Source: an uncultured Candidatus Saccharibacteria bacterium
Lineage (GTDB): Bacteria; Patescibacteriota; Minisyncoccia; Minisyncoccales; JAGMDC01
Direction: 5' to 3'
DNA: 64,000 bases
Assembly (NCBI GenBank): GCA_964615205.1
Contig: CAZTQA010000001.1
Span: 510 to 64,509, forward strand
Below the pieces are notes generated by a model. The model was not told the DNA's origin. It saw only the letters and a list, made by a program, of their open reading frames with translations, and did not search any database. The position numbers were made by a program, and so were the translations under genes. The number at the start of each line of letters is the position of its first letter. Within the stretch, counting starts at the first letter, position 1. Positions 2-45,705 of this stretch are shown in pieces.

Positions 2-895
2 GAGGAGATTTCTATTCCTTTGGAAACCCAGGATGACTATGGCAGAATTGCTGCTCAAACAGCCAAACAGGTTGTGCTTCAGAAGATCAGAGAAGCAGAA
101 AGAGAATCTATTTTAGAAGAATTTGAATCCAAAAAAGGAGGAATAATTTCCGGATTGGTTCAGAGGGTTGAGCCCAGAGTTATTTTTTTTGACATTGGTA
201 AGACAATAGGTGTTTTACCAAGAGAAGAACAGATTCCCGGAGAATTCTATAGACCTAACCAGAGATTTAGACTTTATGTTCTGGATGTAGAAATAACTCC
301 TAAAGGGCCACAAATTATTTTATCCCGGGCTTATCCCAAAATGATTTCAAAATTATTTGAGCTGGAAGTGCCGGAGATTTCTGCTGGCCAGGTTGTTATC
401 AATTCTATTGCCAGAGAAGCTGGCTCCCGTTCCAAAATCGCGGTCAGCTCTGACGTGGAAGGTATGGATCCTATTGGAGCCATGGTGGGACAGAGGGGAA
501 CGAGAGTAGCAGCTGTTATTAATGAATTAGGAGGAGAGAAGATTGATATTATAGAATATTCTGAAAATCCAGAGGAATACATTGCCAATTCTTTATCTCC
601 GGCGAAAATAGTGGAAGTAAAGATTATGCCTAAAAACAAGGCCCTGGCTTTATTACCCGAAGATCAGCTTTCCTTAGCTATTGGAAAAGATGGCCAGAAT
701 GTTCGCCTGGCAGCCAAGCTAACCGGCTGGAAAATAGATGTAAGGAGTTCTGAAGGAAAGGAAGAGCCAAAACAAGAAAAATCTGAAAAACCTAAGGCGG
801 AAAAGTCCCAAAAAGAAGAACCCAAAAAAGAAAATAAAAAAGAGGAAGAACCCAAAAAAGAAAAACCCAAAAAAGAAGAGAAGAAAAAACTATAA
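2..895 (+). CDS. nusA: Transcription termination/antitermination factor NusA, 5'-truncated by the window edge, with Lys/Glu-rich C-terminal tail
   Basis: The frame is open from nt 2 ([25 protein letters not shown]), so the TTG at 20 in the ORF track is probably not the true start. Has an S1-like segment ([21 protein letters not shown]) and two KH-like segments ([14 protein letters not shown]; [23 protein letters not shown]). Confidence 0.9.
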
Positions 896-1499: not shown

Positions 1500-1910
1500 C
1501 TATCTTACAGCTTCCAACTTTCTCTGGGTATTTTGACAGGTACCCATAGAATAGTAGCAGAAAAAATAAGCCGCACAGTCGTCGTCAATAAACTCTATCC
1601 CTAGAGGGCAGACTGGTTCATCTGGATATTCTGGGTCTCTTGGATAATCAGGGCTACAAAAAACATTCGTTTCGTAACTAGCTCCATCTAAAGAACCTGA
1701 ATAATTCTGGTCGGGGTTGCCTTCTTCGCCATAAAGAGCTCTCTCCATGCCTGTGTCAGCAGCAAATAAAGCTCTCATAGAGTTTTCCATTTGTTCAATG
1801 GTTTTGATTTGCCCTACTAAAATAGTGCTCAATCCTAAAACAACTGCCATACCAATGGTAAGAATTATTAAAGCTAAATAAAGAATAACTCCTTTTTCTT
1901 TTTTAAACAT
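1500..1910 (-). CDS. PilX-like minor pilin-associated protein (hypothetical)
   Basis: ORF track gives 1500..1937. A likelier start is the internal MFKKEKGVILYLALIILTIGMAVVLGL, a single N-terminal hydrophobic helix of the PilX_N type. Last gene of the pilin-like operon; Cys-rich C-terminus. Confidence 0.45.
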   Translation of the reverse strand: MFKKEKGVILYLALIILTIGMAVVLGLSTILVGQIKTIEQMENSMRALFAADTGMERALYGEEGNPDQNYSGSLDGASYETNVFCSPDYPRDPEYPDEPVCPLGIEFIDDDCAAYFFCYYSMGTCQNTQRKLEAVR

Positions 1911-1914
1911 AATT

Positions 1915-2496
1915 TCAATATAATTGATATGTATCAATATTTCTCTGGGAAATGGTTGTTTCTAAAGTAATTTTTGGTCCTTCTGGACTGGTTTGAACAA
2001 TTAAAAGCATAGTTACTCTAGATTGATAATTGTCATCCTGATTATGTCCTTGAAGCTTGAATTTGAAATTAGTAATCTCAAGTTTAGACGAAGTTAGGTT
2101 TACGGTTTCTTCATTAGTTGTACCAATGCCTTTTCTATATTTGAGCTGGTTGTTTTCCAAAAAGAATTCTTGGCAATCATCTTCCTCTAAATGGTTAATA
2201 AATTTTATTCCGGTTCCTAAACCTTCATCTCCTCCGATGCGAAAAGCAGACGGGATTTCATAATTTAATCCCAAAGAAGAAAGACATCCCTGGCCTGATT
2301 CTTTTTCTGCCATTCTCAAAGAACGGCTCATTAATTCCATAGAATAACCGCTTTGGTTAAGAAGTTCATAAGAAGATAGAATTCTTTTTTGGGATGTATG
2401 GGTAGTAATAAAAATACTTAATACAGCTCCTATAATAGAAACAGAGACACAAATAGATACCAATATCTCTACTAAAGTGAAACCTGGATTTTTCAT
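1915..2496 (-). CDS. Type IV pilus minor pilin, PilW-like (prepilin-type N-terminal cleavage/methylation domain)
   Basis: ORF track gives 1915..2550. The internal start MKNPG/FTLVEILVSI is the canonical prepilin peptidase motif G|FTLxE followed by a hydrophobic helix. Confidence 0.6.
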   Translation of the reverse strand: MKNPGFTLVEILVSICVSVSIIGAVLSIFITTHTSQKRILSSYELLNQSGYSMELMSRSLRMAEKESGQGCLSSLGLNYEIPSAFRIGGDEGLGTGIKFINHLEEDDCQEFFLENNQLKYRKGIGTTNEETVNLTSSKLEITNFKFKLQGHNQDDNYQSRVTMLLIVQTSPEGPKITLETTISQRNIDTYQLY

Positions 2497-2500
2497 AGAT

Positions 2501-3031
2501 TTATTGCCAATTATATAAATATTCATTAACCGTAGTAGTTTTGATAACATCTTCTCCTGGCCAATAAACTTCTACTTTGACTTCAAGGCTGTCGCCGTTG
2601 GGATCAGGATTTAATGGGTCTATTTCATTAATAATTATTTTTCTCTGGAAGACACTTTCAGGATAATCAGGGGAACTGGAGTAGAAATAAAAACCCTGGT
2701 TATCTGTTTTTAAATATCTGCCAGTGTAAGAGCTTAATTCTAAATCTTGGTATGTATATGTATAATCAGCCTCATATTCTCCAGTAACAGAAAAACCTCG
2801 ATTCCAAGGAATCTCTGGAGAGCCTCTTTGCTCTTCAATAAAATTACTGTCTCTTATGTTGCGTACTATTTCAACTCCTTCCTGCGCTAAAGCCAGGGCA
2901 GAAAGTTTTTTAGAATAATTAGAAGTTATGCGTAGAGTTTTATCTATGGCCGCCAAAGTTGCCAAAAGACCAATTGTGATAATAAAAATGGTGACTAATA
3001 TTTCTAATAAAGTAAAAGCCTTGTTATCCAT
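2501..3031 (-). CDS. Type IV pilus minor pilin, PilV-like
   Basis: MDNKA/FTLLEILVTIFIITIGLL is a prepilin-type N-terminus. Sits in the pilin operon. Confidence 0.6.
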   Translation of the reverse strand: MDNKAFTLLEILVTIFIITIGLLATLAAIDKTLRITSNYSKKLSALALAQEGVEIVRNIRDSNFIEEQRGSPEIPWNRGFSVTGEYEADYTYTYQDLELSSYTGRYLKTDNQGFYFYSSSPDYPESVFQRKIIINEIDPLNPDPNGDSLEVKVEVYWPGEDVIKTTTVNEYLYNWQ

Positions 3032-3059
3032 AAGAATACTTATGTTTTTATTGTTTTTG

Positions 3060-3569
3060 TCATTCTATTTCTACTAAGCCAGCTTTATTAATTCTTACAG
3101 TTTTAGTACCTATGTCTTCAATACCCAAAGTTATTTCTGCTTTATCTGCATCGTTAGTTATATAAATATTAGGATTGGGAGCCCTAAAAATGACAACTAT
3201 GTTTGCTTTGGGAGAAAGTTGAACTATTTTGACATTTGGTTCCAAAATTATATCTCTAATATGTTCAGTTCCTGCCTGATAATGACCACTATTATCAATA
3301 TCTGAAAAAATACTTATTATTCCTTCATTTTTATTACAATATATTCCATATCCTCCTTGAGGATAAAACTCTTCCCCCGGATCGCCTATTGTTTCTCCTG
3401 ATATGGCCATTTGTTCCACTCTCCTTATTTCCTGGGCTAAGTTATTAGCTGATCTTTCTAAAGCATAATTTTTTCCCATTGTTTTATAATTAGTCAAAGT
3501 TATGGCGGTAAGAATGGCAATAATAGCGATAACCACTAAAAGTTCTACTAATGTGAACCCTGTTTTCAT
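3060..3569 (-). CDS. Type IV pilin/pseudopilin, FimT/GspH-like
   Basis: MKTG/FTLVELLVVIAIIAILTAI is a canonical class III signal peptide. First gene of the minus-strand pilin operon. Confidence 0.65.
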   Translation of the reverse strand: MKTGFTLVELLVVIAIIAILTAITLTNYKTMGKNYALERSANNLAQEIRRVEQMAISGETIGDPGEEFYPQGGYGIYCNKNEGIISIFSDIDNSGHYQAGTEHIRDIILEPNVKIVQLSPKANIVVIFRAPNPNIYITNDADKAEITLGIEDIGTKTVRINKAGLVEIE

Positions 3570-3662: not shown

Positions 3663-4277
3663 ATGGAGCTAAAAACTTTAAAGATAAAAAAAGGTAAAAT
3701 TGATTTCAAAAATAAATACTTAAAATTATCAATAATTATTGTTGTTTTATGTTCTTTAGTTTTGATCTGGGTTTTGAACAGTCAAGATTTTTTTATTCCA
3801 GAACAGCCTGAAAGCAAGAAATTTTTTGAAAATTGCCAGGCATTATCCTCTTCTTGTCTAAACAATGAATGTCCTTATTATTTTCTCTGCGATGTAATTG
3901 CTTTCACTGATTGTAAGGTTTATGATTGCGATGCTTATTATGGGGTTGTAATCAAAGACAATAATGGCGAAACAATTACTAGAGAACAGTCAAAACCGGA
4001 CGAGAAAAAAATTAAGGAAAAGCTCAATAAGTGCAGGGGAACCGTTGAGGTTTTGGAGAAAGAATTTAAAGATGGAAAATTGAATGTCAATGTTAAAGTG
4101 AACACTGTCGGCGATTGCAAAATAGTATCTTTTATAGCTCAAAGCCAAAATGGACTCAAAACCGCCTTTTTTGAAGAGAAGGATGATTATTATAATTTAA
4201 TTTTTAATTCTCCCCCTTCTGAACCATTTAAAACCATAGCTGTAGGTGAAGGAGGAATAAGCATAAGAGAGAAATGA
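3663..4277 (+). CDS. Membrane-anchored Cys-rich hypothetical protein
   Basis: N-terminal hydrophobic helix (LSIIIVVLCSLVLIWVL). Its stop overlaps the start of the giant gene (ATGA at 4274), so the two are probably co-translated. Confidence 0.5.
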   Translation: MELKTLKIKKGKIDFKNKYLKLSIIIVVLCSLVLIWVLNSQDFFIPEQPESKKFFENCQALSSSCLNNECPYYFLCDVIAFTDCKVYDCDAYYGVVIKDNNGETITREQSKPDEKKIKEKLNKCRGTVEVLEKEFKDGKLNVNVKVNTVGDCKIVSFIAQSQNGLKTAFFEEKDDYYNLIFNSPPSEPFKTIAVGEGGISIREK

Positions 4278-7200
4278 AGTTATCCTTATTTATATTCTTC
4301 TTTGTTTTGATAGGTCTGATTATGCCTCTGCAAGCCTTTGGCGTTGATCCGCCAAAGGTGACTTTAATTTCTCCCAATGATAATTGTGAGATTGAAGAAA
4401 ATGTTTTGGATTTAACATTTAAACAAACTAATTCTGGAGGAGTAGCTTGTTCCTGCAGTTTATATTTGGACGATGTAGTTGTTCAAACCAATTCATCTGT
4501 TCCTCATAACACGCCAACAACATTTTCAGTTTCAGAAATCAAGCCCGGTCAGCATTGGTGGACTGTAAAGTGTACTGACGCTTCCGGCAACACAGGCAGT
4601 CCTTATTATGTAGCTGCTTCATCTAGAGATGGTGGGATTTATCAGAGCAGTACTGGGAATGCGGGAGAGTGGAGCAAACTTGATTTAAGTCCTTATACCT
4701 ACAATAGTACTACAGGATATATAGAACCACAGATTTATTTTATGGATGCGGATCAAAGAGGCCAACTTTTTGCCCATTTGGATTATGAGAACGAATATTA
4801 TCAAGGAGAACCCCAATATTACGGAGGATATTATGGAGATGTAGATCATAGGTCACTTTTTAGAAGACCGGACGAAGGATCGGCTTGGCAGATTTTAGAT
4901 TTGAAAAAAGATGAATATAGCAACTGGAATATTGTATCAATGGCTGAAGACCCAGCCAGTGAAGATGTTTACATTTCTGTTAGCGGTGAAGGAATTTATA
5001 AAAGTGAAGATGGAGGGATTAATTTTGAACTGCTTCCCAACAGTCCTAGCTCTTCCATACTTTATTTAACAGTTGACCCAACCACAAGCGATATTTATGC
5101 TGGAAAGTTTAATTATAGTGGAAGCAGTATTTATAAAAGTGAAGATAGAGGAGATTCTTGGAATCTTTTAGAAGGAAGTCCTACCGTCTATAGCTATACT
5201 TATACTACTGGCAATGGAATGGATGTTGCTCCTAACGGTGATGTTTATTCAACCAATAATCGCGGGGGCGTATGCAAAAGCATAGACAAAGGAGCAACTT
5301 GGAGTTGTAAAAATTATCTTATTGGTGGTACTGATCCCTCTCGAACTGTTAAAGCAATTTCCAATGATATTATTTTTGTCGGAGGAGAACTAGACGGCTA
5401 TAAAATTCAAAGAAGCACAGACGCCGGAGAGAACTGGGAGACAGTTTTTGACTTATCATCTTTAGGCACTAGAAGATATGTAAATGCTATTGAAATGGCT
5501 CCTAATGGCGATATTTATATTGCCATAGATTATTATTCGGTTTCAGGTTACAAAACTGCTATTTATAGAAGTACTGGTAATGGTGATTTAGGCACCTGGA
5601 CCAAGGTTTTGGATTTAGCAAGCGGGTACGTTTTTAGCCAAGTAAGAGTGGTTGATAATGTTAAGAGATCATTTACAGTCTCTTCTTGGTCTCATATTGG
5701 GAGAACAGAAACCCACTCCGGTTTTACTCCAGCCATTGGTAATATTACGGCTGAAAAATGGTCTGCTTCGGTAGGAGGGGGTTTTAATTTTTATAATTCT
5801 CCGCTTACAGCAGATGTTAATGACGATGGAAAGGATGAGATTGTTTTAGTTAGAGATAGGACATTTGTTTTTGACGGAGAAGGAAACAAGCTTTTTGAGG
5901 GGGGGTGTTGTTTTCCCTCATGGCATTGTGCTTCTGAAACTTGTTTATCAGATAATTTAAGACCGTCTCATCCCGATATTGCTGATATTGATAATGATGG
6001 ATTGAAAGAATTAGTTACTAAGGGAGGGGGTGTTGCACTTTTGTTCTCTCGCGAGTTAGATTTGACAGGAAATTTGAGATGGTATTACGATAATCCTTCC
6101 TATTTGCCTGTAGTTAGTGGATCTTTTACTCCAGTTATTTTTGATCTTGGTATAGTTGGTGCAAAAAAGGAGATAATTTTTGCCACAAACGGAGGCCTGA
6201 TTGTTTTTGAAGAAGAGAACGGCTTGCCCTATCTTGGCAGAAACGATGGTCTGATGGGGGTTTGGCAGGATGGTATTGGCTTTAAAACAGATCCATATGG
6301 TTCAGTTCCTGCTGTGGGTGACATAAACAATGACGGCCAAATGGAAATAGTTGTTCAGGGCAGTCCAGACATTTATGCTTTTGATAGATGGGGAAATAAT
6401 CTTTGGCAAACATCTACTGGCTATGACAGAACAGGCTATACTATTTTAGCTGATGTTGTTTCTGGAAATTCAGGATTAGAGGTTATTACACAGTACACAG
6501 ATCATGTCCTCTGCCTTGACGGAGATAATGGCAGTATTTTATGGGATGTAAATATAGGAGCAGGTAGTCCTAACTTAACAGCTTTTCCTTCTCCAGCTGT
6601 GGCTGATATAGATAATGATGGAATAATAGAAGTGATTGCTCCAAAGGACGCCGGTGGATTCTATGTTTTAAACGGAGAAACTGGAGCTATAGAACAAACC
6701 ATAGAAAGCGGATTAATATATGGATCAATTGTTATTGCTGATATTAATGCGGATGGGAGTCTTGATATCATTGCGCCTACTTACGAAGATCTCTATGTTT
6801 TTGATAAAGACGGTAATAAATTGTGGAGCGGCCTTTCCCTCACTGGCAGCGCTATTCCTTCCCTTAATTCCCCGGCCATATCTGATGTAGATGGTGATGG
6901 CTGGGCAGAAGTTATTTTAATTGATACAAGCGGTGTTCTTCATGTTTTGGGCAAAGACAATGATCCGCCTATAGTAACTATTGAAGCCAAAGACAAAAAT
7001 AATGTTTTAATACCAGATGGAGGAATAGTTAAAAGCGAAGATACCGACTTAATAACTATTTCTTCTATTGCTTCTGATTTCTCTGGCATTCAAAACCACA
7101 AAATTAAGTATTGGGTAAACGGTATTCTTCAAGAACCAATAGATGAATGGTCTGAAGGAGGAACCCATTTTATTACTATTGGTCCACTTTTGATAGGAAC

Positions 7201-10200
7201 CAAAATTGAATATCAAGCTACAGCAACTGATTATAGTCTTAATTACAGCGAAACTACTAAAAAATCGTTTTTGGTTGAAGTAGATACTCATCCGCCAAAG
7301 GTGTTTTTGCTTTCTCCAGATGACAATATTGAAACTGAAGAACAAAGCATGCAGGTTTCTTTTAAGCAGATTGACGATGTTTCTTCTTCCTGTTCCTGCA
7401 GCTTATATTTAGACGATGAAGTTATCCAGACCAATTCATCGGTTCCCAATGATACTGTTACTTATTTTACTCTTAGTAATATGAAGCCAGGAACCAATTA
7501 TTGGACAGTTAAATGTACGGATGAAGCTGGAAATACGGGCAGTCCTTATTATATAAGCCTTGTAGCTAGCCATAATAATCTTTATCAAAGCGATGATGAT
7601 GGACAAACCTGGACAGGGTTGGATGTTTTGAAATATTTCAATTCTCCTATTACGGGAGAAGATTCCATAGGAGGTGTTTCTTTTCTAGATTCCACTTCAG
7701 ATGGAAAAATGTTTATGAGTTTAGGGTATGATAATCATTATGACTGTGACGGAACATATAAAAGCGTATGGCAGGTGCATCAAGCTACTTTTAGAAAAAA
7801 TAGTGACTCATCCATTTTAAAAATGATTAAGGGTGATTGTATAAATGGAAGTTCTAATTTGATCAGTTCTTTAGCTGAAGCTTCTAACGGAGATTTATAT
7901 GCGGTCAATGGTGGTATTTATAAAAGTACAGACAAGGGAGGTATTTGGGATCAAATATCTGGTCCATCTGGCTGTAAATCTGTAGCTGTGAGTGATAATG
8001 GATATATTTTTGCTACCGGCAGCAATGGCGTTTACAGAAGCATAGATAATGGTGAATCCTTTGAACTGCTTTCCGGAAGTCCTAAAATAACTATTACGCC
8101 CACAGCGCATCTTATTATTTCGGTTAATAATGATATTTACGTTGCCAGTGGGAAATATGTTTATAAAAGTATTAACAATGGAGATAACTGGACAATTGTT
8201 TTTACTTCTCCTTATGCAAGCCCTGGCAAAGAAGTTGCCTCTTTATTTGCTTTTAATCAAAACACTATTTTTGCTGGCATTAAACAAGACGATGAACTTT
8301 TAGGGGCAATTTATGTAAGCTATAATGCTGGAGTTGACTGGCAGATATCTTTACAACAACAGCAGATTTATAATGAAACAGATTCTATGGAAGGATGGAC
8401 GCAGTCTATTGATAAATCTCCACAAGGAGATATTTATGCAGCTATCTACGGTTATTGTTATTCTACTGAGCCAAAAGCATTAGTATATAGGAGTATGGAT
8501 TTGGGAGCAACTTGGCAATTATCTTTTTCAAGCCCAAAAAATACCAGTAATAATCCAAGCTTTTCAAGTGTAGTGGAGAATATTCGCCGTTCCATTATTA
8601 TTCCTAGTTGGCCTGAGGTCGGAAGAGAAAAAGATCATAATGCTTACACTTTTCTGGAAGGAGGAATAAGTTTTGTTGAAAAATACTGGAATCAATCCAT
8701 TAGTTCCCCTGTTGATTTAGATTGGGCTGGATTGGTAACGGCTGATATAGATGGCAATGGAAAAGATGAAATTTTTTCAATCAATGAAACAGCTCAAGCC
8801 TTTGATGGACAAGGAAACTTATTATGGAGCAGAACCTGCGGAGTAGGCTGGTCTTCTCCTCGTCCATGTTTTGAGCCAAGCGGATATGGGCAAATTTCAG
8901 CAGTGGGGGATGTTGATAATGACGGTGTTATGGAAATAGTTTTTAATGGCTATGACAATGAGATAATTTGCCGTAATGCAGCCACTGGTACTTTAAAATG
9001 GTTTACCTCTAGTCTCGATATCTATGAAGATGATGTAATAACACCGGTTATTGCTGATATTAATAACGATGGCTTAAATGAAATTATAATTCACGGAAAA
9101 AATCTTTATGTATTAGAAGGTTCCACAGGCGAAGTTTTATGGTCTAAAAGTATTTTGAACCGAGGCACAGTTCCTGCATTGGCTGATTTAAATCAGGACG
9201 GACAAATGGACATTGTGGTTGAAAATGCTAGTGATAATTATTTATATGCTTTTGATGGTCAGGAAAATCCATTATGGCAAGTTCAAGTTCAACCAAATTA
9301 CAATGATGTAACCGGCTATATTTCAATAGCTGATGTAGATAATGACAATAAGCCGGAAGTCATTGAAACTTGTTGGGGGGAAATTTTTGTCTTTAATGGA
9401 GAAGACGGTAGCAAACTATGGAGCAAACCATATGCTGAATTTCCTGGACAGCAAGCAGTTAACGATTATGGTTCCCCAGCTATAGGAGATGTAAGAACTG
9501 ATATTGCGGGAATGGAAATAGCCTTGGGATTAGCTGATCCTGGTGGTCATCCAGCCCAGGGATTATTCCTGTTAAATGGGAAGACAGGAGAGATTATTTG
9601 GAGTGATGCCTCTATTGGCAGTGTCTATGGCTCGCCAGCCATAGCTGATATTAACAGTGATGGAGAATTGGAAATTATTATTCAGACAGATATGGTTTAT
9701 TGTTTTAATTCCAGCGGAGAAATTATTTGGAGTTATCCGGCTGGCGGAAGGTCAAATGTAGCCATAGCAGATGTAATGGATACAGAAGGAGCTGAAGTGA
9801 TTGTTTTTTCTGGAGGAGAAATTTATGTTTTAGGAGAGGACAATGTCCCGCCCCAGCTTGTTATTGAAAGAGTGCCTGCGGGCGATGTTTACAATGATGA
9901 TACAGTAATTTTTACTTCTATAGCTTTAGATACATCAGGTATTTATTATCATGCTGTTCAATATCGTATAAACGAAGGAGAATGGGCAACTATTTTCGAA
10001 TGTTATGATTCAAACGGCGATAACAAATGCGACAGTGATTTCAGAGATGTTAATCCTTTAGTAGTATCAGTTGATCCCTATACTTATGCGGTTGATGATT
10101 ATATTGAATATCGTTCTACGGCTGTAGATAATAGTTTTCCTCCTAATACTGGCTATAGTGATATAGGTTCTTTTACTGTGCTTTTAGGTAATGCTCCGCC

Positions 10201-10921
10201 ATATATTCAATCCCAGGAAGTTAATTATCAAGAATACTGCGGATCAGGTCTTTGTGATGGAGCAGTAGGATTTAAGTGGATCTATAAAGATGAAGATGGG
10301 GACAATGAAATTAGATATGATTTCAAAATAAACGATGTTGATGATGTGGATGATCTCGATCCAGAAGTTGATAAGACTTTTAAGGGATTAAGTTATCCAG
10401 ATGGAACAGAAAATAATCAGCAAGTAACAGTAGCTAAGTCTGCAGGAGAGAACGAAATTACCTACAACACCACTTATTATTGGTGGGCAAAGGTATATGA
10501 TGAGTGGGGTGATTCCGGATGGATTAGCGGTAGTTCCTTTGCTACAGCTGCTCACGCTTATCCTGATCCTGATTTTACTTTGGAACCTGAAGCCCCGGCA
10601 GTAGATGTATTTGCTCAGTTATGCTCAGTGGAAGCACCGGGCCTTTGTGATTCAGATATTAGCAAATGCTATGACATTAATAATGAGGAAGTTTCTTGTT
10701 CCGGAGCCGAATTTACATGGGACATTAGTGGCTGCAATGGCATCTTTGTGGGAGGAACAGATGAGCATTCTGAAAATCCCAAAGTCAAACTTTATTCATC
10801 AGGTCAAATAAAGCTTTGGATTACAGACCAAGACGGTTTTGGCCCCTGTACTATTTCAAAAGATATTGAACCTAAACTTCCTTATCCCGGGTGGAAGGAA
10901 ATTCCTCCCCAGAAGGAATAA
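4274..10921 (+). CDS. Giant secreted surface protein (2215 aa) with duplicated Ig-like + BNR/Asp-box + FG-GAP/VCBS-like modules and a PKD/FN3-like C-terminus
   Basis: Signal peptide MKLSLFIFFFVLIGLIMPLQAFG. Many Asp-box-like SxDxGxxW motifs (SEDRGDSW, SIDKGATW, STDAGENW, SDDDGQTW, SMDLGATW). Many FG-GAP-like Ca-binding loops (DVNDDGKDEIV, DIDNDGLKELV, DINNDGQMEIV, DINADGSLDII, DVDNDGVMEIV). Confidence 0.85.
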   Translation: MKLSLFIFFFVLIGLIMPLQAFGVDPPKVTLISPNDNCEIEENVLDLTFKQTNSGGVACSCSLYLDDVVVQTNSSVPHNTPTTFSVSEIKPGQHWWTVKCTDASGNTGSPYYVAASSRDGGIYQSSTGNAGEWSKLDLSPYTYNSTTGYIEPQIYFMDADQRGQLFAHLDYENEYYQGEPQYYGGYYGDVDHRSLFRRPDEGSAWQILDLKKDEYSNWNIVSMAEDPASEDVYISVSGEGIYKSEDGGINFELLPNSPSSSILYLTVDPTTSDIYAGKFNYSGSSIYKSEDRGDSWNLLEGSPTVYSYTYTTGNGMDVAPNGDVYSTNNRGGVCKSIDKGATWSCKNYLIGGTDPSRTVKAISNDIIFVGGELDGYKIQRSTDAGENWETVFDLSSLGTRRYVNAIEMAPNGDIYIAIDYYSVSGYKTAIYRSTGNGDLGTWTKVLDLASGYVFSQVRVVDNVKRSFTVSSWSHIGRTETHSGFTPAIGNITAEKWSASVGGGFNFYNSPLTADVNDDGKDEIVLVRDRTFVFDGEGNKLFEGGCCFPSWHCASETCLSDNLRPSHPDIADIDNDGLKELVTKGGGVALLFSRELDLTGNLRWYYDNPSYLPVVSGSFTPVIFDLGIVGAKKEIIFATNGGLIVFEEENGLPYLGRNDGLMGVWQDGIGFKTDPYGSVPAVGDINNDGQMEIVVQGSPDIYAFDRWGNNLWQTSTGYDRTGYTILADVVSGNSGLEVITQYTDHVLCLDGDNGSILWDVNIGAGSPNLTAFPSPAVADIDNDGIIEVIAPKDAGGFYVLNGETGAIEQTIESGLIYGSIVIADINADGSLDIIAPTYEDLYVFDKDGNKLWSGLSLTGSAIPSLNSPAISDVDGDGWAEVILIDTSGVLHVLGKDNDPPIVTIEAKDKNNVLIPDGGIVKSEDTDLITISSIASDFSGIQNHKIKYWVNGILQEPIDEWSEGGTHFITIGPLLIGTKIEYQATATDYSLNYSETTKKSFLVEVDTHPPKVFLLSPDDNIETEEQSMQVSFKQIDDVSSSCSCSLYLDDEVIQTNSSVPNDTVTYFTLSNMKPGTNYWTVKCTDEAGNTGSPYYISLVASHNNLYQSDDDGQTWTGLDVLKYFNSPITGEDSIGGVSFLDSTSDGKMFMSLGYDNHYDCDGTYKSVWQVHQATFRKNSDSSILKMIKGDCINGSSNLISSLAEASNGDLYAVNGGIYKSTDKGGIWDQISGPSGCKSVAVSDNGYIFATGSNGVYRSIDNGESFELLSGSPKITITPTAHLIISVNNDIYVASGKYVYKSINNGDNWTIVFTSPYASPGKEVASLFAFNQNTIFAGIKQDDELLGAIYVSYNAGVDWQISLQQQQIYNETDSMEGWTQSIDKSPQGDIYAAIYGYCYSTEPKALVYRSMDLGATWQLSFSSPKNTSNNPSFSSVVENIRRSIIIPSWPEVGREKDHNAYTFLEGGISFVEKYWNQSISSPVDLDWAGLVTADIDGNGKDEIFSINETAQAFDGQGNLLWSRTCGVGWSSPRPCFEPSGYGQISAVGDVDNDGVMEIVFNGYDNEIICRNAATGTLKWFTSSLDIYEDDVITPVIADINNDGLNEIIIHGKNLYVLEGSTGEVLWSKSILNRGTVPALADLNQDGQMDIVVENASDNYLYAFDGQENPLWQVQVQPNYNDVTGYISIADVDNDNKPEVIETCWGEIFVFNGEDGSKLWSKPYAEFPGQQAVNDYGSPAIGDVRTDIAGMEIALGLADPGGHPAQGLFLLNGKTGEIIWSDASIGSVYGSPAIADINSDGELEIIIQTDMVYCFNSSGEIIWSYPAGGRSNVAIADVMDTEGAEVIVFSGGEIYVLGEDNVPPQLVIERVPAGDVYNDDTVIFTSIALDTSGIYYHAVQYRINEGEWATIFECYDSNGDNKCDSDFRDVNPLVVSVDPYTYAVDDYIEYRSTAVDNSFPPNTGYSDIGSFTVLLGNAPPYIQSQEVNYQEYCGSGLCDGAVGFKWIYKDEDGDNEIRYDFKINDVDDVDDLDPEVDKTFKGLSYPDGTENNQQVTVAKSAGENEITYNTTYYWWAKVYDEWGDSGWISGSSFATAAHAYPDPDFTLEPEAPAVDVFAQLCSVEAPGLCDSDISKCYDINNEEVSCSGAEFTWDISGCNGIFVGGTDEHSENPKVKLYSSGQIKLWITDQDGFGPCTISKDIEPKLPYPGWKEIPPQKE

Positions 10922-10924
10922 TTT

Positions 10925-10952
10925 TTGACAAGAAATATTTTTCTGCTATACT
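10925..10952 (+). promoter_or_regulatory. Sigma70-like promoter upstream of rny
   Basis: TTGACA (10925-10930), 16-nt spacer, TGcTATACT (-10 at 10947-10952). Confidence 0.5.
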
Positions 10953-11025
10953 AACTTTATAGATACTAAATAAAATAATATGGTTTTTGGTATGAAAAAA
11001 TATTGCCAATCTCTCATTTTAAACC

Positions 11026-12555
11026 ATGGAATCATTAAACCTACTTTTAGCGGGCTTAGTTTCCTTAGTGCTGGGTTCGGTTTTAGGTTACTATGCCCGT
11101 CAATCAATTGCCAAGAAAAGAGTTGGAACCATAGAGCAAAAGCTGCAGAAGAAAGTAGCTCAAGCCAAGGAAGAAGCGGAAAAAATTGTTTCTGAAGCGG
11201 AAAAGAAATCATCTAGTTTTTTAGAAAAAACCAAGAGAGAAGCAGATAAAAGGCAAAAAGACCTTTTGAAAACAGAACAAATTTTACTGCGTCGGGAAAG
11301 CATTCTAGAAAGAAAAATTTCTGATTTTGAAGACAAGGAAAAAGATTTTCACGAGAAAGTGGATAAATTAAGAAAAATAAAAGAAAGTCTGGAAGACTAC
11401 AGGCAGGAAGCTATCGAAAAATTGGAAAAAGTTGCCAAGCTTTCCCAAAAAGAAGCTAAAGAAGAGCTCTTAAAGAATATTGAAAAACAGAATGAGTTGG
11501 AAGTTTTAGGGAAGATGAGCAGACTGGAAAGAGAAGGATTGGAAAAATTTGATAAACGAGCTAAAGAAATCTTAGCTTCAGCTATTCAAAAATGCGCTGT
11601 TTCTCAAGCTCAAGAAATTACCACTACTAATGTCTCTCTTCCTAATGAAGAAATCAAAGGGAGAATTATTGGCAAAGAAGGAAGGAATATCAGGGCTTTG
11701 GAGAATTTAACAGGGGTGGAAGTTGTTGTAGACGAAACACCAGGCATGGTGGTTATTTCTGGTTTTGACCCCATTAGGAGACAAGTGGCTAAAAATGCTT
11801 TGGAAAAACTTATTCAAGACGGCAGAATTCAGCCAGCCAGAATTGAAGAAGTAGTCAACAAAGCAGAAGAAGAAATTATTACTCAAATAAAAGAAGCTGG
11901 AGAGCAGGCAGTTTATGAGACAGGAATAGTTGGATTGGATCCCAAGATTGTTCAGCTTTTGGGACGGCTTCGTTTTAGAACCAGTTATGGTCAGAATGTT
12001 TTGCTTCACTCTATTGAGGTTTCCCACTTGGCAGCTACCTTGGCTGAAGAAATAAGAGTCAATGTTCAGGTGGCCCGTAAGGCTGGTTTGCTTCATGATA
12101 TTGGCAAAGCTTTGGACTGGAAGGTAGAGGGTTCTCATGTGGATATAGGTATAAAAATTTTGGAAAGATTTAATGTGGAAAAGGAGGTTATTGATGCTAT
12201 GAAGTCCCATCACGGGGAATATCCAGAGGAAAGTATAGAAGCAGTTTTAGTGCAGACAGCCGATGCTATTTCTGGTTCTCGTCCCGGAGCCAGAAAAGAT
12301 ACTTTAGAAAATTATCTTAAACGTTTAGGTGATTTAGAAGATATTGCCAACGGGTTTTCCGGAGTAGAAAAGGCCTGGGCTTTGCAAGCGGGCAGGGAAT
12401 TAAGAGTTTTTGTAAGACCGGAAGAAATAGATGATTTAACAGCTAATAAATTAGCCCGGGAAATAGCTAAGAGGATTCAAGAAGAATTAAGATATCCGGG
12501 AGAAATTAAGGTTACGGTTATCAGAGAAAAAAGAGTAGTAGAATACGCCAAGTAA
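11026..12555 (+). CDS. rny: Ribonuclease Y
   Basis: N-terminal TM helix, long coiled-coil, KH domain (GRIIGKEGRNIRALENLTGVEVVVD) and HD domain (LLHDIGKA ... SHHGE). Confidence 0.9.
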   Translation: MESLNLLLAGLVSLVLGSVLGYYARQSIAKKRVGTIEQKLQKKVAQAKEEAEKIVSEAEKKSSSFLEKTKREADKRQKDLLKTEQILLRRESILERKISDFEDKEKDFHEKVDKLRKIKESLEDYRQEAIEKLEKVAKLSQKEAKEELLKNIEKQNELEVLGKMSRLEREGLEKFDKRAKEILASAIQKCAVSQAQEITTTNVSLPNEEIKGRIIGKEGRNIRALENLTGVEVVVDETPGMVVISGFDPIRRQVAKNALEKLIQDGRIQPARIEEVVNKAEEEIITQIKEAGEQAVYETGIVGLDPKIVQLLGRLRFRTSYGQNVLLHSIEVSHLAATLAEEIRVNVQVARKAGLLHDIGKALDWKVEGSHVDIGIKILERFNVEKEVIDAMKSHHGEYPEESIEAVLVQTADAISGSRPGARKDTLENYLKRLGDLEDIANGFSGVEKAWALQAGRELRVFVRPEEIDDLTANKLAREIAKRIQEELRYPGEIKVTVIREKRVVEYAK

Positions 12556-12851: not shown

Positions 12852-12863
12852 AAAATTCTACTA

Positions 12864-12895
12864 AAAAATCCCGCACCTCGGTGCGGGATTTTTTA
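12864..12895 (+). terminator. Rho-independent terminator after hup
   Basis: AAAAATCCCGCAC-CTCG-GTGCGGGATTTTT is a perfect GC-containing stem followed by a T-run. Confidence 0.8.
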
Positions 12896-12905
12896 GTTGG
12901 AATAT

Positions 12906-12958
12906 ACAGGACTGTGGATAAAGTATCTATGGACTTTCTATTTTCTTTCTATTATAAT
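12906..12958 (+). promoter_or_regulatory. Candidate promoter/operator region of the lexA-methyltransferase gene
   Basis: TGGACT (12930-12935), 17-nt spacer, TATAAT (12953-12958). CTTTCTATT direct repeat at 12934-12942 and 12945-12953 (11-nt period) overlaps the spacer and -10. Small palindromes ACAGGACTGT (12906-12915) and GATAAAGTATC lie upstream. Confidence 0.4.
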
Positions 12959-12990
12959 TAAGTATAGAGAATATAAAAATAAATCAAGTC

Positions 12991-14313
12991 ATGATTACTA
13001 AAAAGCAAAAACAAGTTTTAGATTTCATAACTTTATATCGCAAGAAACGAGGATATTCTCCGTCTCTTGAAGAAATACAAAAAAAATTCAGACTTGCTTC
13101 TGTTTCTACTGCTCATTTCCATGTTAAAAAATTACAAGAATTGGGACTTTTAGAAAAAAAACACAACAAACCAAGGTCAATTAATATCTACGAGAACGAA
13201 AAAATGGTTAATATTCCTCTCCTGGGCTTAATAGCTGCTGGGCAGCCGATTGAAGCAATACAAGATAAAGAAACAATTGCTTTTCCCCAAAACAAACTTC
13301 CTCGCTTTGGAGAATTTTATGCTTTACGAGTAGCAGGAAATAGTATGATAGAGGAGAACATCAAGGATGGTGATATTATTTTAGTAAAAGAACAACAAAC
13401 AGTTGAAAATGGACAAAAAGTTGTTGCGCTGATCGATAATTATAAAGCAACCTTAAAAACGTTTTATAAAGAAAGAGATAAAATTCGTTTACAACCAGCC
13501 AATAAAAATTATGAACCAATTATTATAAAGAGCGGTGAACGAGAGATTGTTATTCAAGGACTTGTTATTGATGTAATAAAAAACAATGAAGAATTGCAAG
13601 CAACAGAATTATTATCGCAAAAGGAAATAAAGAGATATAATAACCTACCACTAAATAAAGTTATCTGTGGAGATGCTATAGAAGAATTGAAAAAACTACC
13701 AAATAAATCTATTGATTTGATATTAACAGATCCTCCTTACGGATTAAATAAAAAGGGCATTAGTAATGATACTGATTTAAGCTTATTTTATTCGTCTTTG
13801 CCGGAAAGTTACCGAGTTTTAAAGGATAACTCTTTCTTTATAACCTTTTTTAGTACAAAATTTTTACCACAAATTTTCAGAAGTAATCCTTTTGAATATT
13901 TCTGGAATTTTGTTCTTTATTGTCCGAATGGAAGCGTCTCTTCCCCTATAGGATATACAAAATATATGTCTTGTATGGTCTTCAAAAAGGGTAATCCTAA
14001 GATGATAAAAAGAGGGAAAGATATTTTTGTTGATACTCCAGGTAGAATGGTGGAACCTGACGAAGGGTTTATTAATCATCCAACGCCAAAACCAAAAACC
14101 TTTATAAAAGATATTTTGTTAATGTTCTCTAGAAACGGAGATATCGTTTTAGATCCTTTTATAGGTAGCGGGAGTACAGCAATTGCTTGTAAGCAAATTG
14201 GAAGAAATTTCATTGGATTTGAGATTGATGTAAATTACTATAAATTGGCTAAAGAAAGATTAAAGAAAATTGAAGGAAAATCTAAGACCTATGACCTTAA
14301 ACTTAATTTTTAA
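12991..14313 (+). CDS. Fusion protein: full-length LexA-like repressor (wHTH + S24 autopeptidase) fused to a beta-class N6A/N4C DNA methyltransferase
   Basis: aa 1-200 are colinear with LexA: cleavage site LIAA83|G84QP, Ser118 in AGNSM, Lys156 in ATLKTF, end GLVIDVIKN. aa 225-440 are a methyltransferase: DPPY at aa 247-250, HPTPKP, LDPFIGSGST, FIGFEID. The motif order IV then I defines the beta class. Confidence 0.85.
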   Translation: MITKKQKQVLDFITLYRKKRGYSPSLEEIQKKFRLASVSTAHFHVKKLQELGLLEKKHNKPRSINIYENEKMVNIPLLGLIAAGQPIEAIQDKETIAFPQNKLPRFGEFYALRVAGNSMIEENIKDGDIILVKEQQTVENGQKVVALIDNYKATLKTFYKERDKIRLQPANKNYEPIIIKSGEREIVIQGLVIDVIKNNEELQATELLSQKEIKRYNNLPLNKVICGDAIEELKKLPNKSIDLILTDPPYGLNKKGISNDTDLSLFYSSLPESYRVLKDNSFFITFFSTKFLPQIFRSNPFEYFWNFVLYCPNGSVSSPIGYTKYMSCMVFKKGNPKMIKRGKDIFVDTPGRMVEPDEGFINHPTPKPKTFIKDILLMFSRNGDIVLDPFIGSGSTAIACKQIGRNFIGFEIDVNYYKLAKERLKKIEGKSKTYDLKLNF

Positions 14314-15190
14314 TAAGGTTCTTTAGAACTGTTTTCATATCCCAAGCATGCTCTTTTGAGGCAACGATAAAGCTTTCTGCAAGTCCTATCAGATCATCTT
14401 TACTAATTGGTAAAAAGATTACTTCATTACTTTTTGCTGTTCGTCCAATAATTGAACGGTTGTCTTTGTCAAAAAGATTGTTTGCTTTTGAACAGAAATA
14501 TATCATACTTTGATAACCAACTGCTTTTTGTTTGTGTTGTAAAATAATTTCAACAAGAGTATTGCTACTTATTCTATTCATAAATAAAGGATTTTTTTCT
14601 TCAAATAATTCAAACTTGCCCAAAATTTTTTTATGAGTCGTTGTTCTGATAATTTTATACTGTTTTTCAATATCTAATTCATTTTTATTATTAAAATCTA
14701 TCAATTGTTCAATTTCCTGTTTGTTTATTAATTTATCTTTTAATGCGATTTTGAACAAATCAGATAATTCATAACCGACATAAGTATTTCCATTTTTGTG
14801 CTCTTTTATAACTATTATTTCATTATTTCTTTTAAAAATTTCAAGTATTTCATTCTTAAAATCTTTTCTACTTTTGATGTTCGTTTCTAGAATAAATTTT
14901 TTAATATCGCTAAGGATGTTTATATTTTTATAATTTAAAGATAAATTTTCTAAAATGTTCTCGCGATCTTTTGGCGTTTTAGCTGTTCGATAGTTTTTCC
15001 AGATTGTATCAATCGGCAAGAAATAAGAAATTTGCCATTCAACATAATCATTTTCAGAAAATACATTTTTCTTTACAGAAATTGGTTCGCCAAAATTATC
15101 TTTCCTTCGTTTAACTCTAATTTTGCTAGTTGCACCAGTTATTGGGATAGAACAAATAATTTTACTATTTTTTATAAAAAGCATTGACAT
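14303..15190 (-). CDS. Hypothetical protein; candidate cognate restriction endonuclease
   Basis: 295-aa ORF convergent with the methyltransferase, 3' ends overlapping by 11 nt. Visibly very AT-rich. I could find no nuclease motif, so the call rests on context only. Confidence 0.35.
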   Translation of the reverse strand: MSMLFIKNSKIICSIPITGATSKIRVKRRKDNFGEPISVKKNVFSENDYVEWQISYFLPIDTIWKNYRTAKTPKDRENILENLSLNYKNINILSDIKKFILETNIKSRKDFKNEILEIFKRNNEIIVIKEHKNGNTYVGYELSDLFKIALKDKLINKQEIEQLIDFNNKNELDIEKQYKIIRTTTHKKILGKFELFEEKNPLFMNRISSNTLVEIILQHKQKAVGYQSMIYFCSKANNLFDKDNRSIIGRTAKSNEVIFLPISKDDLIGLAESFIVASKEHAWDMKTVLKNLIKN

Positions 15191-15226
15191 ATTATAATAA
15201 CAAATGACTTTTATTTTTTAAATTGA

Positions 15227-15297
15227 AGCGAGTGAAGGGAATCGAACCCTCATGACCAGGTTGGAAACCTGAGGCTCTGCCATTGAGCTACACTCGC
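15227..15297 (-). tRNA. tRNA-Gly (anticodon UCC)
   Basis: Reverse complement is GCGAGTGTAGCTCAATGGCAGAGCCTCAGGTTTCCAACCTGGTCATGAGGGTTCGATTCCCTTCACTCGCT. Acceptor GCGAGTG/CACTCGC, anticodon stem TCAGG/CCTGG with loop TTTCCAA, T-loop TTCGATT. CCA is not encoded. Confidence 0.85.
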
Positions 15298-15299
15298 CT

Positions 15300-15370
15300 T
15301 CGGGGTACCCAGATTTGAACTGGGACTAAATCCTCCCAAAGGACTCGTGCTGCCGTTACACTATACCCCG
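15300..15370 (-). tRNA. tRNA-Pro (anticodon UGG)
   Basis: Reverse complement is CGGGGTATAGTGTAACGGCAGCACGAGTCCTTTGGGAGGATTTAGTCCCAGTTCAAATCTGGGTACCCCGA. Acceptor CGGGGTA/TACCCCG, anticodon stem AGTCC/GGATT with loop TTTGGGA, T-arm CCCAG-TTCAAAT-CTGGG. Confidence 0.85.
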
Positions 15371-15450
15371 AACTCATTCATATTTTAATAAAACTTTTGC
15401 TTTTAGTCAATCAATGTTATCATAAATGTATGTATTAACAATTTAATTTA

Positions 15451-45351: not shown

Positions 45352-45358
45352 TTTTCTG

Positions 45359-45705
45359 TGGAGATGAGGAGAATTGAACTCCTGTCCAGAAACTTCCCTA
45401 AGATATTTCGACAAGCTTAAAAAGTTTTGCCTCTTTTTCTTAACAGCTATTCGAGGCGGGATAGCTGTCTATCTCGATAATATGACACCTTCCTTATTTA
45501 TCGAGAGTCAATAAAGAAGATGGCATTACGATTAAACGTAAGCAGGAACTAATCCAGCTACGCCGCCGCCAAAGGCATTGGCAAAAGCTGCTTTAGTTTT
45601 AGAAATTAAGTTGGCGCTTATTTCTTTTTCCCAAAGTTTAACGAGGTTTGAGAAAACTCGGCTTGCATACCTTAGTTCAGATTCCTGTCTATGCCTTTCA
45701 TCCCC
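45359..45705 (-). ncRNA. ssrA: tmRNA (SsrA)
   Basis: 5' GGGGATG pairs with 3' CATCTCC, including the G3-U70 Ala identity pair, followed by discriminator A. T-arm GGAC-AGGAG-TTCAATT-CTCCT matches E. coli GGAC-GCGGG-TTCAACT-CCCGC. Internal tag frame ends ...GGGVAGLVPAYV-TAA. Located directly downstream of smpB. Confidence 0.88.

Follow-up and report, generated by a model that had tools for sequence, protein, structure and literature searches.

A complete LexA joined to restriction-modification methyltransferases in Patescibacteria: a candidate damage-responsive regulator

In a stretch of 64,000 nucleotides (nt) from an uncultured Candidatus Saccharibacteria bacterium (contig CAZTQA010000001.1 of assembly GCA_964615205.1; hereafter the window) a single gene, lexA::M, encodes a protein of 440 amino acids (aa) that consists of a whole LexA repressor continued in frame into a whole beta-class DNA methyltransferase. 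It very probably supplies the methyltransferase (M) of a Type II restriction-modification (R-M) system, since its 3' end overlaps a convergent gene for an R.PabI-family restriction enzyme (R). Such fusions are a large family in Patescibacteria, the Candidate Phyla Radiation (CPR), and not a rarity. We favour, tentatively and with a confidence that stops just short of an even chance, a reading in which the protein is a self-repressing methyltransferase that would be freed by RecA-stimulated autocleavage, raising modification during DNA damage.

Results

Architecture of the fusion protein

The gene is one open reading frame (ORF) without internal stops or frame changes (Table 1). Three Pfam profiles match its product, all far above their own cut-offs: LexA_DNA_bind (PF01726) at aa 2-62 (1e-13), Peptidase_S24 (PF00717) at aa 76-193 (6e-29) and N6_N4_Mtase (PF01555) at aa 241-422 (2e-29), the last spanning profile positions 1-221. 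The lexA equivalog of NCBIfam (TIGR00498) scores 176.3 bits over aa 2-199, against a cut-off of 110.95. In comparisons with solved structures, LexA of T. maritima (3k2z) is colinear with aa 2-195 (E 3e-32) and LexA of E. coli with aa 2-200 (E about 1e-26). Aligned to the E. coli protein, LIAA83-G84QP corresponds to the cleavage site, AGNS118M to the catalytic serine and ATLK156TF to the catalytic lysine, and GLVIDVIKN occupies residues 190-198. The winged helix, the Ser-Lys dyad of the S24 domain with its Ala-Gly bond and the equivalog score together place this part of the protein among the LexA repressors.

The methyltransferase motifs lie at aa 247-250 (DPPY), 363-368 (HPTPKP), 387-396 (LDPFIGSGST) and 407-413 (FIGFEID). 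Motif IV (DPPY) precedes motif I (LDPFIGSGST) and the recognition region lies between them, which is the arrangement of the beta class. AlphaFold2 predicts three confident domains and two low-confidence hinges at aa 66-69 and 201-210, with a predicted local distance difference test score (pLDDT) of 80-95 in the methyltransferase core. The predicted template modelling score (pTM) of 0.49 makes the inter-domain arrangement unreliable, and we claim no contacts between LexA and the methyltransferase. Foldseek matched the modelled methyltransferase to M1.HpyAVI, MboIIA, CcrM, M.BceJIV and M.RsrI, with template modelling scores (target) of 0.6-0.77.

The original prediction, made from the window's letters and their ORFs, had described a whole LexA in frame with a whole beta-class methyltransferase and had proposed a Pfam scan and an AlphaFold model as checks. 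Its description is confirmed by the ORF, Pfam, NCBIfam and the structure comparisons: all three Pfam domains are present, every residue and motif that it named is where it placed them, and the model likewise predicts three confident domains on flexible hinges.

Table 1. Mapped features of the lexA::M locus, in window positions
Feature	Position	Strand	Basis
Hairpin terminator of the upstream HU gene, left edge of the regulatory region	12860..12897		Terminator scan; sequence
DnaA-box consensus TGTGGATAA (TTATCCACA on the opposite strand)	12913..12921	+	Perfect match; 8 nt upstream of the -35 hexamer
Three direct repeats with 11-bp period (TATCTAT, TTTCTAT, TTTCTAT), putative operator of the LexA domain	12924..12952	+	Fills the spacer and overlaps the -35 hexamer
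Sigma-70-like promoter, TGGACT-17 nt-TATAAT	12930..12958	+	Promoter scan, 10/12 matches; layout conserved across loci
lexA::M gene, 440-aa LexA-methyltransferase fusion	12991..14313	+	ORF, Pfam, NCBIfam, structure alignments, AlphaFold2, PADLOC
LexA winged-helix DNA-binding domain, aa 1-62	12991..13176	+	PF01726; pLDDT 85-89; helix-operator covariation
Recognition helix SVSTAHFHVKKL	13099-13134	+	Inside the winged-helix domain
Peptidase S24 catalytic and dimerisation domain, aa 76-193	13216..13569	+	PF00717; fold matches LexA structures
Ala83-Gly84 codons, LexA self-cleavage bond	13237..13242	+	Alignment to E. coli LexA; invariant in 79/79 fusions
Ser118 codon	13342-13344	+	Invariant in 79/79 fusions
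Lys156 codon	13456-13458	+	Invariant in 79/79 fusions
Flexible linker, ~20 aa (about aa 200-222)	13588..13656	+	pLDDT ~40 at aa 201-210; sequence kept among beta-class fusions (alignment)
Beta-class N6/N4 DNA methyltransferase, aa 223-430	13657..14280	+	PF01555; PADLOC MTase_II; fold matches
Methyltransferase motif IV (DPPY)	13729-13740	+	Sequence
Methyltransferase motif I (LDPFIGSGST)	14149-14178	+	Sequence
R.PabI-family restriction enzyme gene, 295 aa, convergent with the fusion	14303..15190	-	PF09522; 2dvy, E 4e-28; PADLOC REase_II
tRNA-Gly	15225-15298	-	ARAGORN; directly upstream of R
tRNA-Pro	15299-15371	-	ARAGORN; directly upstream of R
Strong promoter-like site before tRNA-Pro/tRNA-Gly and R	15410-15382	-	Promoter scan

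The restriction partner

The 3' ends of the fusion gene and of the R.PabI-family gene overlap by 11 nt, and a terminator scan found no terminator between M and R in the window. PADLOC matches both MTase_II and REase_II at the locus, and alignment of the nuclease with the R.PabI structure 2dvy shows conservation of the YxEWQISY and H..D segments. In loci L004 and L224, too, R.PabI accompanies the M type of the window. M and R have diverged together in L224, being 62% and 60% identical, respectively, to their counterparts in the window. This closest PabI-type relative has a 375-aa ORF without a Pfam match (4304-5431) between the fusion and a convergent pair of R and C-protein genes. By analogy with the R.PabI partner, the specificity of the window's system is probably GTAC.

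We compared 80 loci, namely the window, L004-L009 and 73 further loci from GTDB species. A called ORF adjoins the 3' end of the fusion in 77 of them; it is convergent in 68 of these 77, and the 3' ends overlap in 57. The part of the methyltransferase that follows DPPY falls into at least eight clusters, which covary with the family of the downstream ORF: R.PabI, RE_TaqI, Endonuclease_7 together with His_Me_b4a2 (Hpy99I-like), RE_MamI, PvuII-like, HNH and MutH/Sau3AI-like, besides several families without a Pfam match. M and R genes are adjacent, and cognate pairs are kept or exchanged together, as expected of Type II systems. The original assignment of the methyltransferase to an R-M system is upheld by the overlapping convergent nuclease gene. 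An orphan methyltransferase had also been considered and is ruled out by that gene and by the covariation of M with R.

C-protein genes (HTH_3, a helix-turn-helix (HTH) family; ~73 aa) stand directly upstream of R in 30 of the 68 convergent loci. The original prediction had set LexA against the small C-proteins that usually control R-M systems; a simple replacement of one by the other does not hold, given these 30 relatives that retain both. The window's own system has no C-protein gene, and its R sits behind tRNA genes. The promoter-like site before the tRNAs makes it possible that R is transcribed together with tRNA-Pro and tRNA-Gly, and R may be expressed in this way. Many related loci likewise have tRNA genes, of varying identity, on the R side.

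Distribution of the fusion

The ORF recurs unchanged, between the same neighbours, in assemblies of different samples from ENA, JGI and Logan (at least three independent ones), and all three domains occur in each of the 120 top protein homologues. A scan of GTDB with one genome per species gave 305 confirmed matching loci. The best 80 of these 305 all match over fusion residues 1 to about 430 and come from Paceibacterota/Parcubacteria groups, from Levy-, Roizman-, Dojka-, Doudna-, Falkow-, Uhr-, Jorgensen- and Buchananbacteria, and from other lineages. The best GTDB loci and the loci found earlier yielded 79 single full-length fusion ORFs from distinct loci. Four were not recovered whole: contig ends truncate L010, L014 and L072, and L083 has two ORFs (1843-3492), one for a LexA of 203 aa whose S24 domain is truncated and one for a methyltransferase of 330 aa. 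L083 may be a pseudogene or a form that is unfused by nature, or it may reflect a sequencing error.

Some genomes contain more than one such gene. L070, on a Falkowbacteria contig, has tandem LexA-methyltransferase genes (4374-6266 and 7459-8985), the first of which encodes a 630-aa protein with a permuted methyltransferase and has its own operator; L030 and L031 are two fusions within one metagenome-assembled genome. The Liptonbacteria contig of L042 carries, 7 kb from its fusion, a canonical LexA of 237 aa (85-798, minus strand) that is 28% identical to the fused LexA, as well as an extra unfused N6_N4 methyltransferase (10312-11145).

The fusion is not a phage gene, because only 2 of 2.9 million viral contigs hold it in full length. 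A CI-like prophage repressor is ruled out on the same grounds and by the housekeeping flanks (RNase Y, HU, tRNAs, PilB and tryptophanyl-tRNA synthetase, TrpRS).

No description of a LexA-methyltransferase fusion was found in the full-text literature searched; a study of the SOS response in Patescibacteria (Sanchez-Osuna, Barbe and Erill 2017) lies outside that coverage and may report the motif or the fusion. A review of R-M biology from 2025 contains no mention of LexA. The original prediction knew of no R-M methyltransferase carrying LexA, and we too found no paper that describes one, but the architecture as such is widespread (305 loci) and already annotated automatically: public pipelines label members of the family either 'transcriptional repressor LexA' or 'adenine-specific methyltransferase'.

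Conserved front end and exchangeable back ends

Between methyltransferase clusters, mean identity is about 67% in LexA and linker, 43% in the first 54 aa of the methyltransferase and 23% in the rest. The window and the TaqI-type fusion of L006, for instance, are 80% identical in the LexA part and 18% in the methyltransferase body. DNA similarity between loci typically begins at window position 12911-12913 and ends at 13676-13768, around the DPPY codons. L004, the sole relative of the window's methyltransferase type in the set of loci compared at the DNA level, matches only 13635-14267. The window and L011 lie in the same chromosomal setting, with RNase Y upstream and genes for a kinase, a receiver and PilB downstream; the flanking proteins are 50-63% identical. 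Their R-M types nevertheless differ, behind LexA modules that share 78% identity in DNA.

When the LexA part alone was searched against 1.84 billion cluster representatives, the nearest ~45 clusters (at least 49% identity) were mostly long proteins with LexA at the N-terminus. This search found LexA fused to gamma-class enzymes (N6_Mtase, Eco57I, TaqI_C), to alpha-class Dam-type, to C5 cytosine and to permuted N6_N4 methyltransferases. Ordinary LexAs of ~200 aa appear from about 50% identity downwards and dominate below about 47%; the named ones belong to non-CPR bacteria.

It is possible, rather than probable, that the unit of DnaA box, promoter-operator, LexA and linker is a portable cassette of the CPR, joined to beta, gamma, alpha and C5 methyltransferases and to at least ten restriction enzymes, and that it integrates signals from RecA on single-stranded DNA (ssDNA) and from DnaA to set the balance of modification and restriction. 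In L007, a locus syntenic with the window, a large serine recombinase (7598-9277) lies between the R-M unit and the tRNA-Gly/tRNA-Pro pair, which hints at how R-M cassettes may be exchanged. Beyond the single gene noticed originally, new points are that the family is broad, with every methyltransferase class, at least ten families of nucleases and many lineages of the CPR, that it is built as a cassette-like mosaic, and that its promoter carries DnaA box and operator.

Promoter, operator and DnaA box

The repeat consensus TTTC(T/G)AT-N4-TTTC(T/G)AT has its only exact match in the window at the fusion promoter. The repeat pair is present in 74 of the 80 loci, mostly between -35 and -10 and sometimes inverted just past -10, and is rare elsewhere in 909 kb of related flanks. 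The LexA domain thus faces a repeated operator in its own promoter, the layout of an autoregulated lexA at the sequence level, and it quite probably represses this promoter.

The half-sites covary with the recognition helix: TAT/GAT half-sites go with SVSTAHFH, and TTTCGG(T/G) half-sites (10 loci) with ..(I/V)H(Q/E)H.. helices. TAT-type repeats stand before a LexA-gamma fusion with helix AYHH. In a LexA-C5 fusion with helix YQH, the same DnaA box is followed by an imperfect first repeat (TTCTGT) and by TTTCGGT as the second. The variable position of the helix presumably corresponds to a base-contacting residue of E. coli LexA. An operator that bears the cognate methylation site was considered and ruled out: there is no GTAC in 12900-12990, and TCGA operator variants are not tied to TaqI-type systems.

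TGTGGATAA occurs as a single exact copy in the window. Near the fusion start, 71 of the 80 loci have a DnaA box with no more than one mismatch, 54 of them an exact one, where about 6 are expected from the local background. In most fusion promoters (L004-L087, L220) the box is kept 21-24 nt upstream of the operator, measured start to start; in some loci (L042, L052, L067) it is inverted or doubled beside the start codon. This pattern suggests that DnaA may bind there and control the methyltransferase gene.

A scan of metagenomes for the exact operator pattern returned 80 loci, about 28 of which have a DnaA-like box or a LexA-fusion ORF beside the operator. Twenty-two are confirmed LexA fusions; in five more box-bearing loci the downstream ORF is cut off or unassessable, and three of these five start with the N-terminal codons of the fusion. 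Three confirmed fusions have no box in the same orientation. Every box- or fusion-associated site with an assessable ORF preceded a LexA fusion. The other loci, which have no box, are mostly unrelated AT-rich DNA, many of them one recurrent conserved stretch. L127 and L158 resemble the fusion loci in promoter layout and have no LexA ORF.

Conservation of the cleavage residues

We aligned 79 fusions, taken from the window, L004-L009 and another 72 loci of GTDB species; A83, G84, S118 and K156 are invariant in all 79, despite about 33% divergence elsewhere in the LexA part, and their equivalents are kept in the gamma, alpha and C5 fusions as well. The cleavage site and the Ser/Lys dyad of the original prediction, which had named their lack of conservation as a finding that would speak against it, are present and 100% conserved. 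Because these four residues are invariant while the LexA part averages about 67% identity between types, competence for cleavage appears to be under selection, and we consider it reasonably likely that RecA-dependent cleavage takes place in the cell.

Other genes in the window

An ORF at 49120-52449 (+) encodes a 1109-aa class I tRNA synthetase resembling isoleucyl-tRNA synthetase, with a histidine-phosphatase domain (PF00300, E 1e-35) at aa 478-639; this insertion falls inside the catalytic domain and is unusual. At 4274-10921 (+) lies the gene of a secreted giant protein of 2215 aa with FG-GAP/beta-propeller repeats and an internally duplicated N-terminal module. A PolX-type polymerase (42183-43934; pol-beta thumb, HHH and PHP domains) and a transfer-messenger RNA gene (45358-45705) are ordinary.

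Discussion

A proposed mechanism

DNA-binding domains at the N-terminus that repress the gene of their own methyltransferase are established (PMC3874152; PMC12707154), and the fusion would follow this logic: dimerised by its S24 domain, the intact protein would bind the 11-bp-spaced repeats in its promoter and repress its own synthesis. RecA-coated ssDNA would build up after damage, after fork collapse, or when the system's own nuclease makes breaks because methylation lags; unbalanced R-M activity is known to induce SOS (PMC3874152). On this signal the S24 domain would cut the Ala83-Gly84 bond, the DNA-binding domain would be lost, the promoter would open and more methyltransferase would be made, while the methyltransferase on its flexible linker should remain active after cleavage. 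The additional M transcription would run on antisense into R, because the two genes overlap tail to tail without a terminator. The net effect would be a damage-triggered tilt from restriction to modification that spares new, unmethylated host DNA, a Type II counterpart of restriction alleviation, which in Type I systems occurs when unmodified sites arise (PMC4231737). The DnaA box before the promoter would add an input from replication status.

The data show the domain architecture, the conservation of the catalytic residues, the partnership with R, and the conserved promoter elements with their covariation with the recognition helix. We infer from them that the protein binds the operator, that RecA brings about cleavage, that the cleaved product is stable and active, that M transcription opposes R and that DnaA binds its box. 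The protective direction of the net effect is as tentative as the reading as a whole, and we would place it slightly below an even call. The original prediction had named both damage-induced derepression and suicidal restriction as outcomes, and sequence by itself does not rank the two. The dedicated operator in the gene's own promoter, the helix-operator covariation and the terminator-free convergent overlap nevertheless point to derepression, and because of them we expect more methyltransferase rather than suicide. Its further suggestion that LexA targets the methyltransferase found no support.

Several points weigh against self-repression relieved by autocleavage. E. coli LexA fragments are unstable, and an unstable S24-methyltransferase fragment would reverse the predicted outcome. 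More methyltransferase during a phage infection would aid the phage. The C-protein kept by almost half of the convergent relatives means that LexA is not the sole controller, and the sensor partner has to be assumed, since the window contains no recA. A few relatives are without the S24 domain, and cleavage is therefore dispensable for some members: in L154 (403 aa; metagenome contig C687J35174_10011329) and P0010 (366 aa) the winged helix is joined almost directly to the methyltransferase, and L154 keeps operator and DnaA box. The covariation of helix and operator is suggestive and may reflect perhaps only two or three evolutionary events, and direct repeats with an 11-bp period are typical of OmpR/PhoB-type regulators as well. 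As to specificity, GTAC avoidance is uninformative: the depletion of GTAC in the window is weak (observed/expected 0.78, z -2.1) and is exceeded by that of many other 4-mer palindromes.

Alternative explanations

On the one hand, the fusion could be a plain self-repressing methyltransferase, or establishment timer, in which LexA is merely a dimeric DNA-binding module like the HTH of M.SsoII-type enzymes and cleavage has no regular role. Regulatory methyltransferases with N-terminal DNA-binding domains are well known, the operator is confined to the fusion's own promoter, and the S24-less L154 retains it together with the DnaA box. Dimerisation alone, however, needs neither the cleavage site nor the catalytic dyad, and the strict invariance of all four cleavage residues across the 79 fusions, extending to the gamma, alpha and C5 enzymes, is hard to reconcile with a module that is never cut. 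We therefore regard this explanation as unlikely, although it survives better than the others.

Alternatively, damage might trigger suicide or abortive infection: the cleaved S24-methyltransferase would be destroyed via degrons, methylation would lapse and the stable nuclease would cut the cell's own new DNA, so that an infected or badly damaged cell would die. CPR bacteria rely heavily on R-M for defence, and the cleaved N-terminal fragment would end in ...LIAA, presumably similar to the tag that E. coli LexA exposes to ClpX. Strict conservation of the cleavage machinery is in keeping with this reading, and R-M systems do kill cells on loss of modification (PMC3874152). Against this, loss of the DNA-binding domain should also derepress the gene through its dedicated operator and thereby raise synthesis, ordinary DNA damage would become lethal, and the precedent of restriction alleviation runs the opposite way. 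The methyltransferase is moreover modelled as a separate domain on a flexible linker, and nothing suggests that it needs the winged helix. An outcome of this kind seems unlikely too, by a shade more than the plain self-repressor.

A third possibility is a general SOS repressor with a passenger or cell-cycle (CcrM-like) methyltransferase, the neighbouring nuclease being incidental. The protein passes the lexA equivalog cut-off, no other lexA is found in the window, the nearest stand-alone LexAs come from non-CPR bacteria, and the window and L011 share one chromosomal frame around different R-M types. However, the operator stands at no other gene in the window, in the 909 kb of flanks or in the metagenome sample, and within these limits, which make for a limited test, no regulon of repair genes such as recA, uvr or translesion polymerases was found; looser operator matches in the window are at the level of chance (14 against 8.5 +/- 3.2 expected). 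A search for recA found none in the relatives' loci either. The methyltransferase type covaries with the adjacent nuclease, the L042 contig has a separate canonical LexA, some genomes have two fusions (L070; L030 and L031), and matches among the scanned species genomes number only about 300, as would suit an accessory gene. We consider this explanation improbable.

That adjacent lexA and M genes were joined by a sequencing or assembly error, or in a chimeric contig, is negligibly probable: the split L083 could be cited in its favour, but the independent assemblies with an identical ORF, the 79 full-length fusions at distinct loci with a conserved linker and the three-domain architecture of all 120 top homologues rule it out.

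Significance

Type II nucleases endanger their own host whenever methylation lags behind, as in repair synthesis, recombination and rapid replication. Beyond C-proteins and simple self-repression we know of little on how R-M systems sense that danger. If the proposed mechanism is true, it would be a direct molecular link from DNA damage to the balance of restriction and modification, and a built-in brake on autoimmunity for Type II systems, of a kind that to our knowledge is not known in model organisms. CPR bacteria are mostly without CRISPR and depend on R-M; with many CPR lineages and all methyltransferase classes involved, the fusion may stand for one of the main ways in which their phage defence is regulated. 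A conserved LexA front with swapped R-M backs would be a natural case of modular cassette exchange, and it might offer a compact damage-inducible switch for engineering.

Comparison with known systems

The fusion follows the design of the regulatory methyltransferases with a new element, a complete cleavable LexA, and is at the same time a new use of LexA. Known regulatory methyltransferases are mostly C5 enzymes with a short HTH. Those of the SsoII type (M.SsoII, M.Ecl18kI, M.EcoRII, M.MspI, M.ScrFIA) likewise have an N-terminal DNA-binding domain and an operator that overlaps the M promoter (PMC3874152; PMC12707154). In contrast to them, the protein described here carries an entire LexA of ~200 aa, winged helix and S24 domain with an intact site, before a beta-class enzyme, so that a damage signal could remove repression irreversibly. 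Its genes are convergent and overlapping whereas theirs are divergent with a shared control region, its operator consists of direct repeats, and one regulator is found on beta, gamma, alpha and C5 enzymes.

With canonical LexA (TIGR00498) the fusion shares colinear homology, the Ala-Gly site, the Ser-Lys dyad, the equivalog score and a putative operator in its own promoter. It differs in its C-terminal enzyme of 240 aa and in that no regulon past its own promoter was detected in the window, the 909 kb of flanks and the metagenome sample; the gene looks accessory, is sometimes duplicated, and can coexist with a separate LexA. In Alphaproteobacteria, LexA is documented to bind direct repeats with this period, GTTC-N7-GTTC (PMC8565304). 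The operators are alike in their xTTC-N7-xTTC direct repeats and 11-bp period; they are unlike in flanking bases and lineage, and the fusion has two or three repeats in one promoter.

The window's nuclease is a clear homologue of R.PabI, the restriction glycosylase of the R.PabI/M.PabI system of Pyrococcus abyssi, but it has an insertion of ~80 aa (aa 58-138), and its cognate methyltransferase carries LexA. The C-R operons of the 30 convergent relatives, with the HTH_3 gene directly before R, resemble C-protein-controlled R-M systems; the window has no C gene, and LexA there would control the M side and not R. With the alleviation of Type I restriction, in which ClpXP degrades HsdR of EcoKI, the fusion shares a proposed purpose, a lower risk of self-restriction at unmodified host sites (PMC4231737; PMC11109961). 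In the Type I case this is achieved by proteolysis of the nuclease subunit on DNA, whereas here it would be achieved by derepression of the methyltransferase through self-cleavage of its repressor, and the analogy is one of function only.

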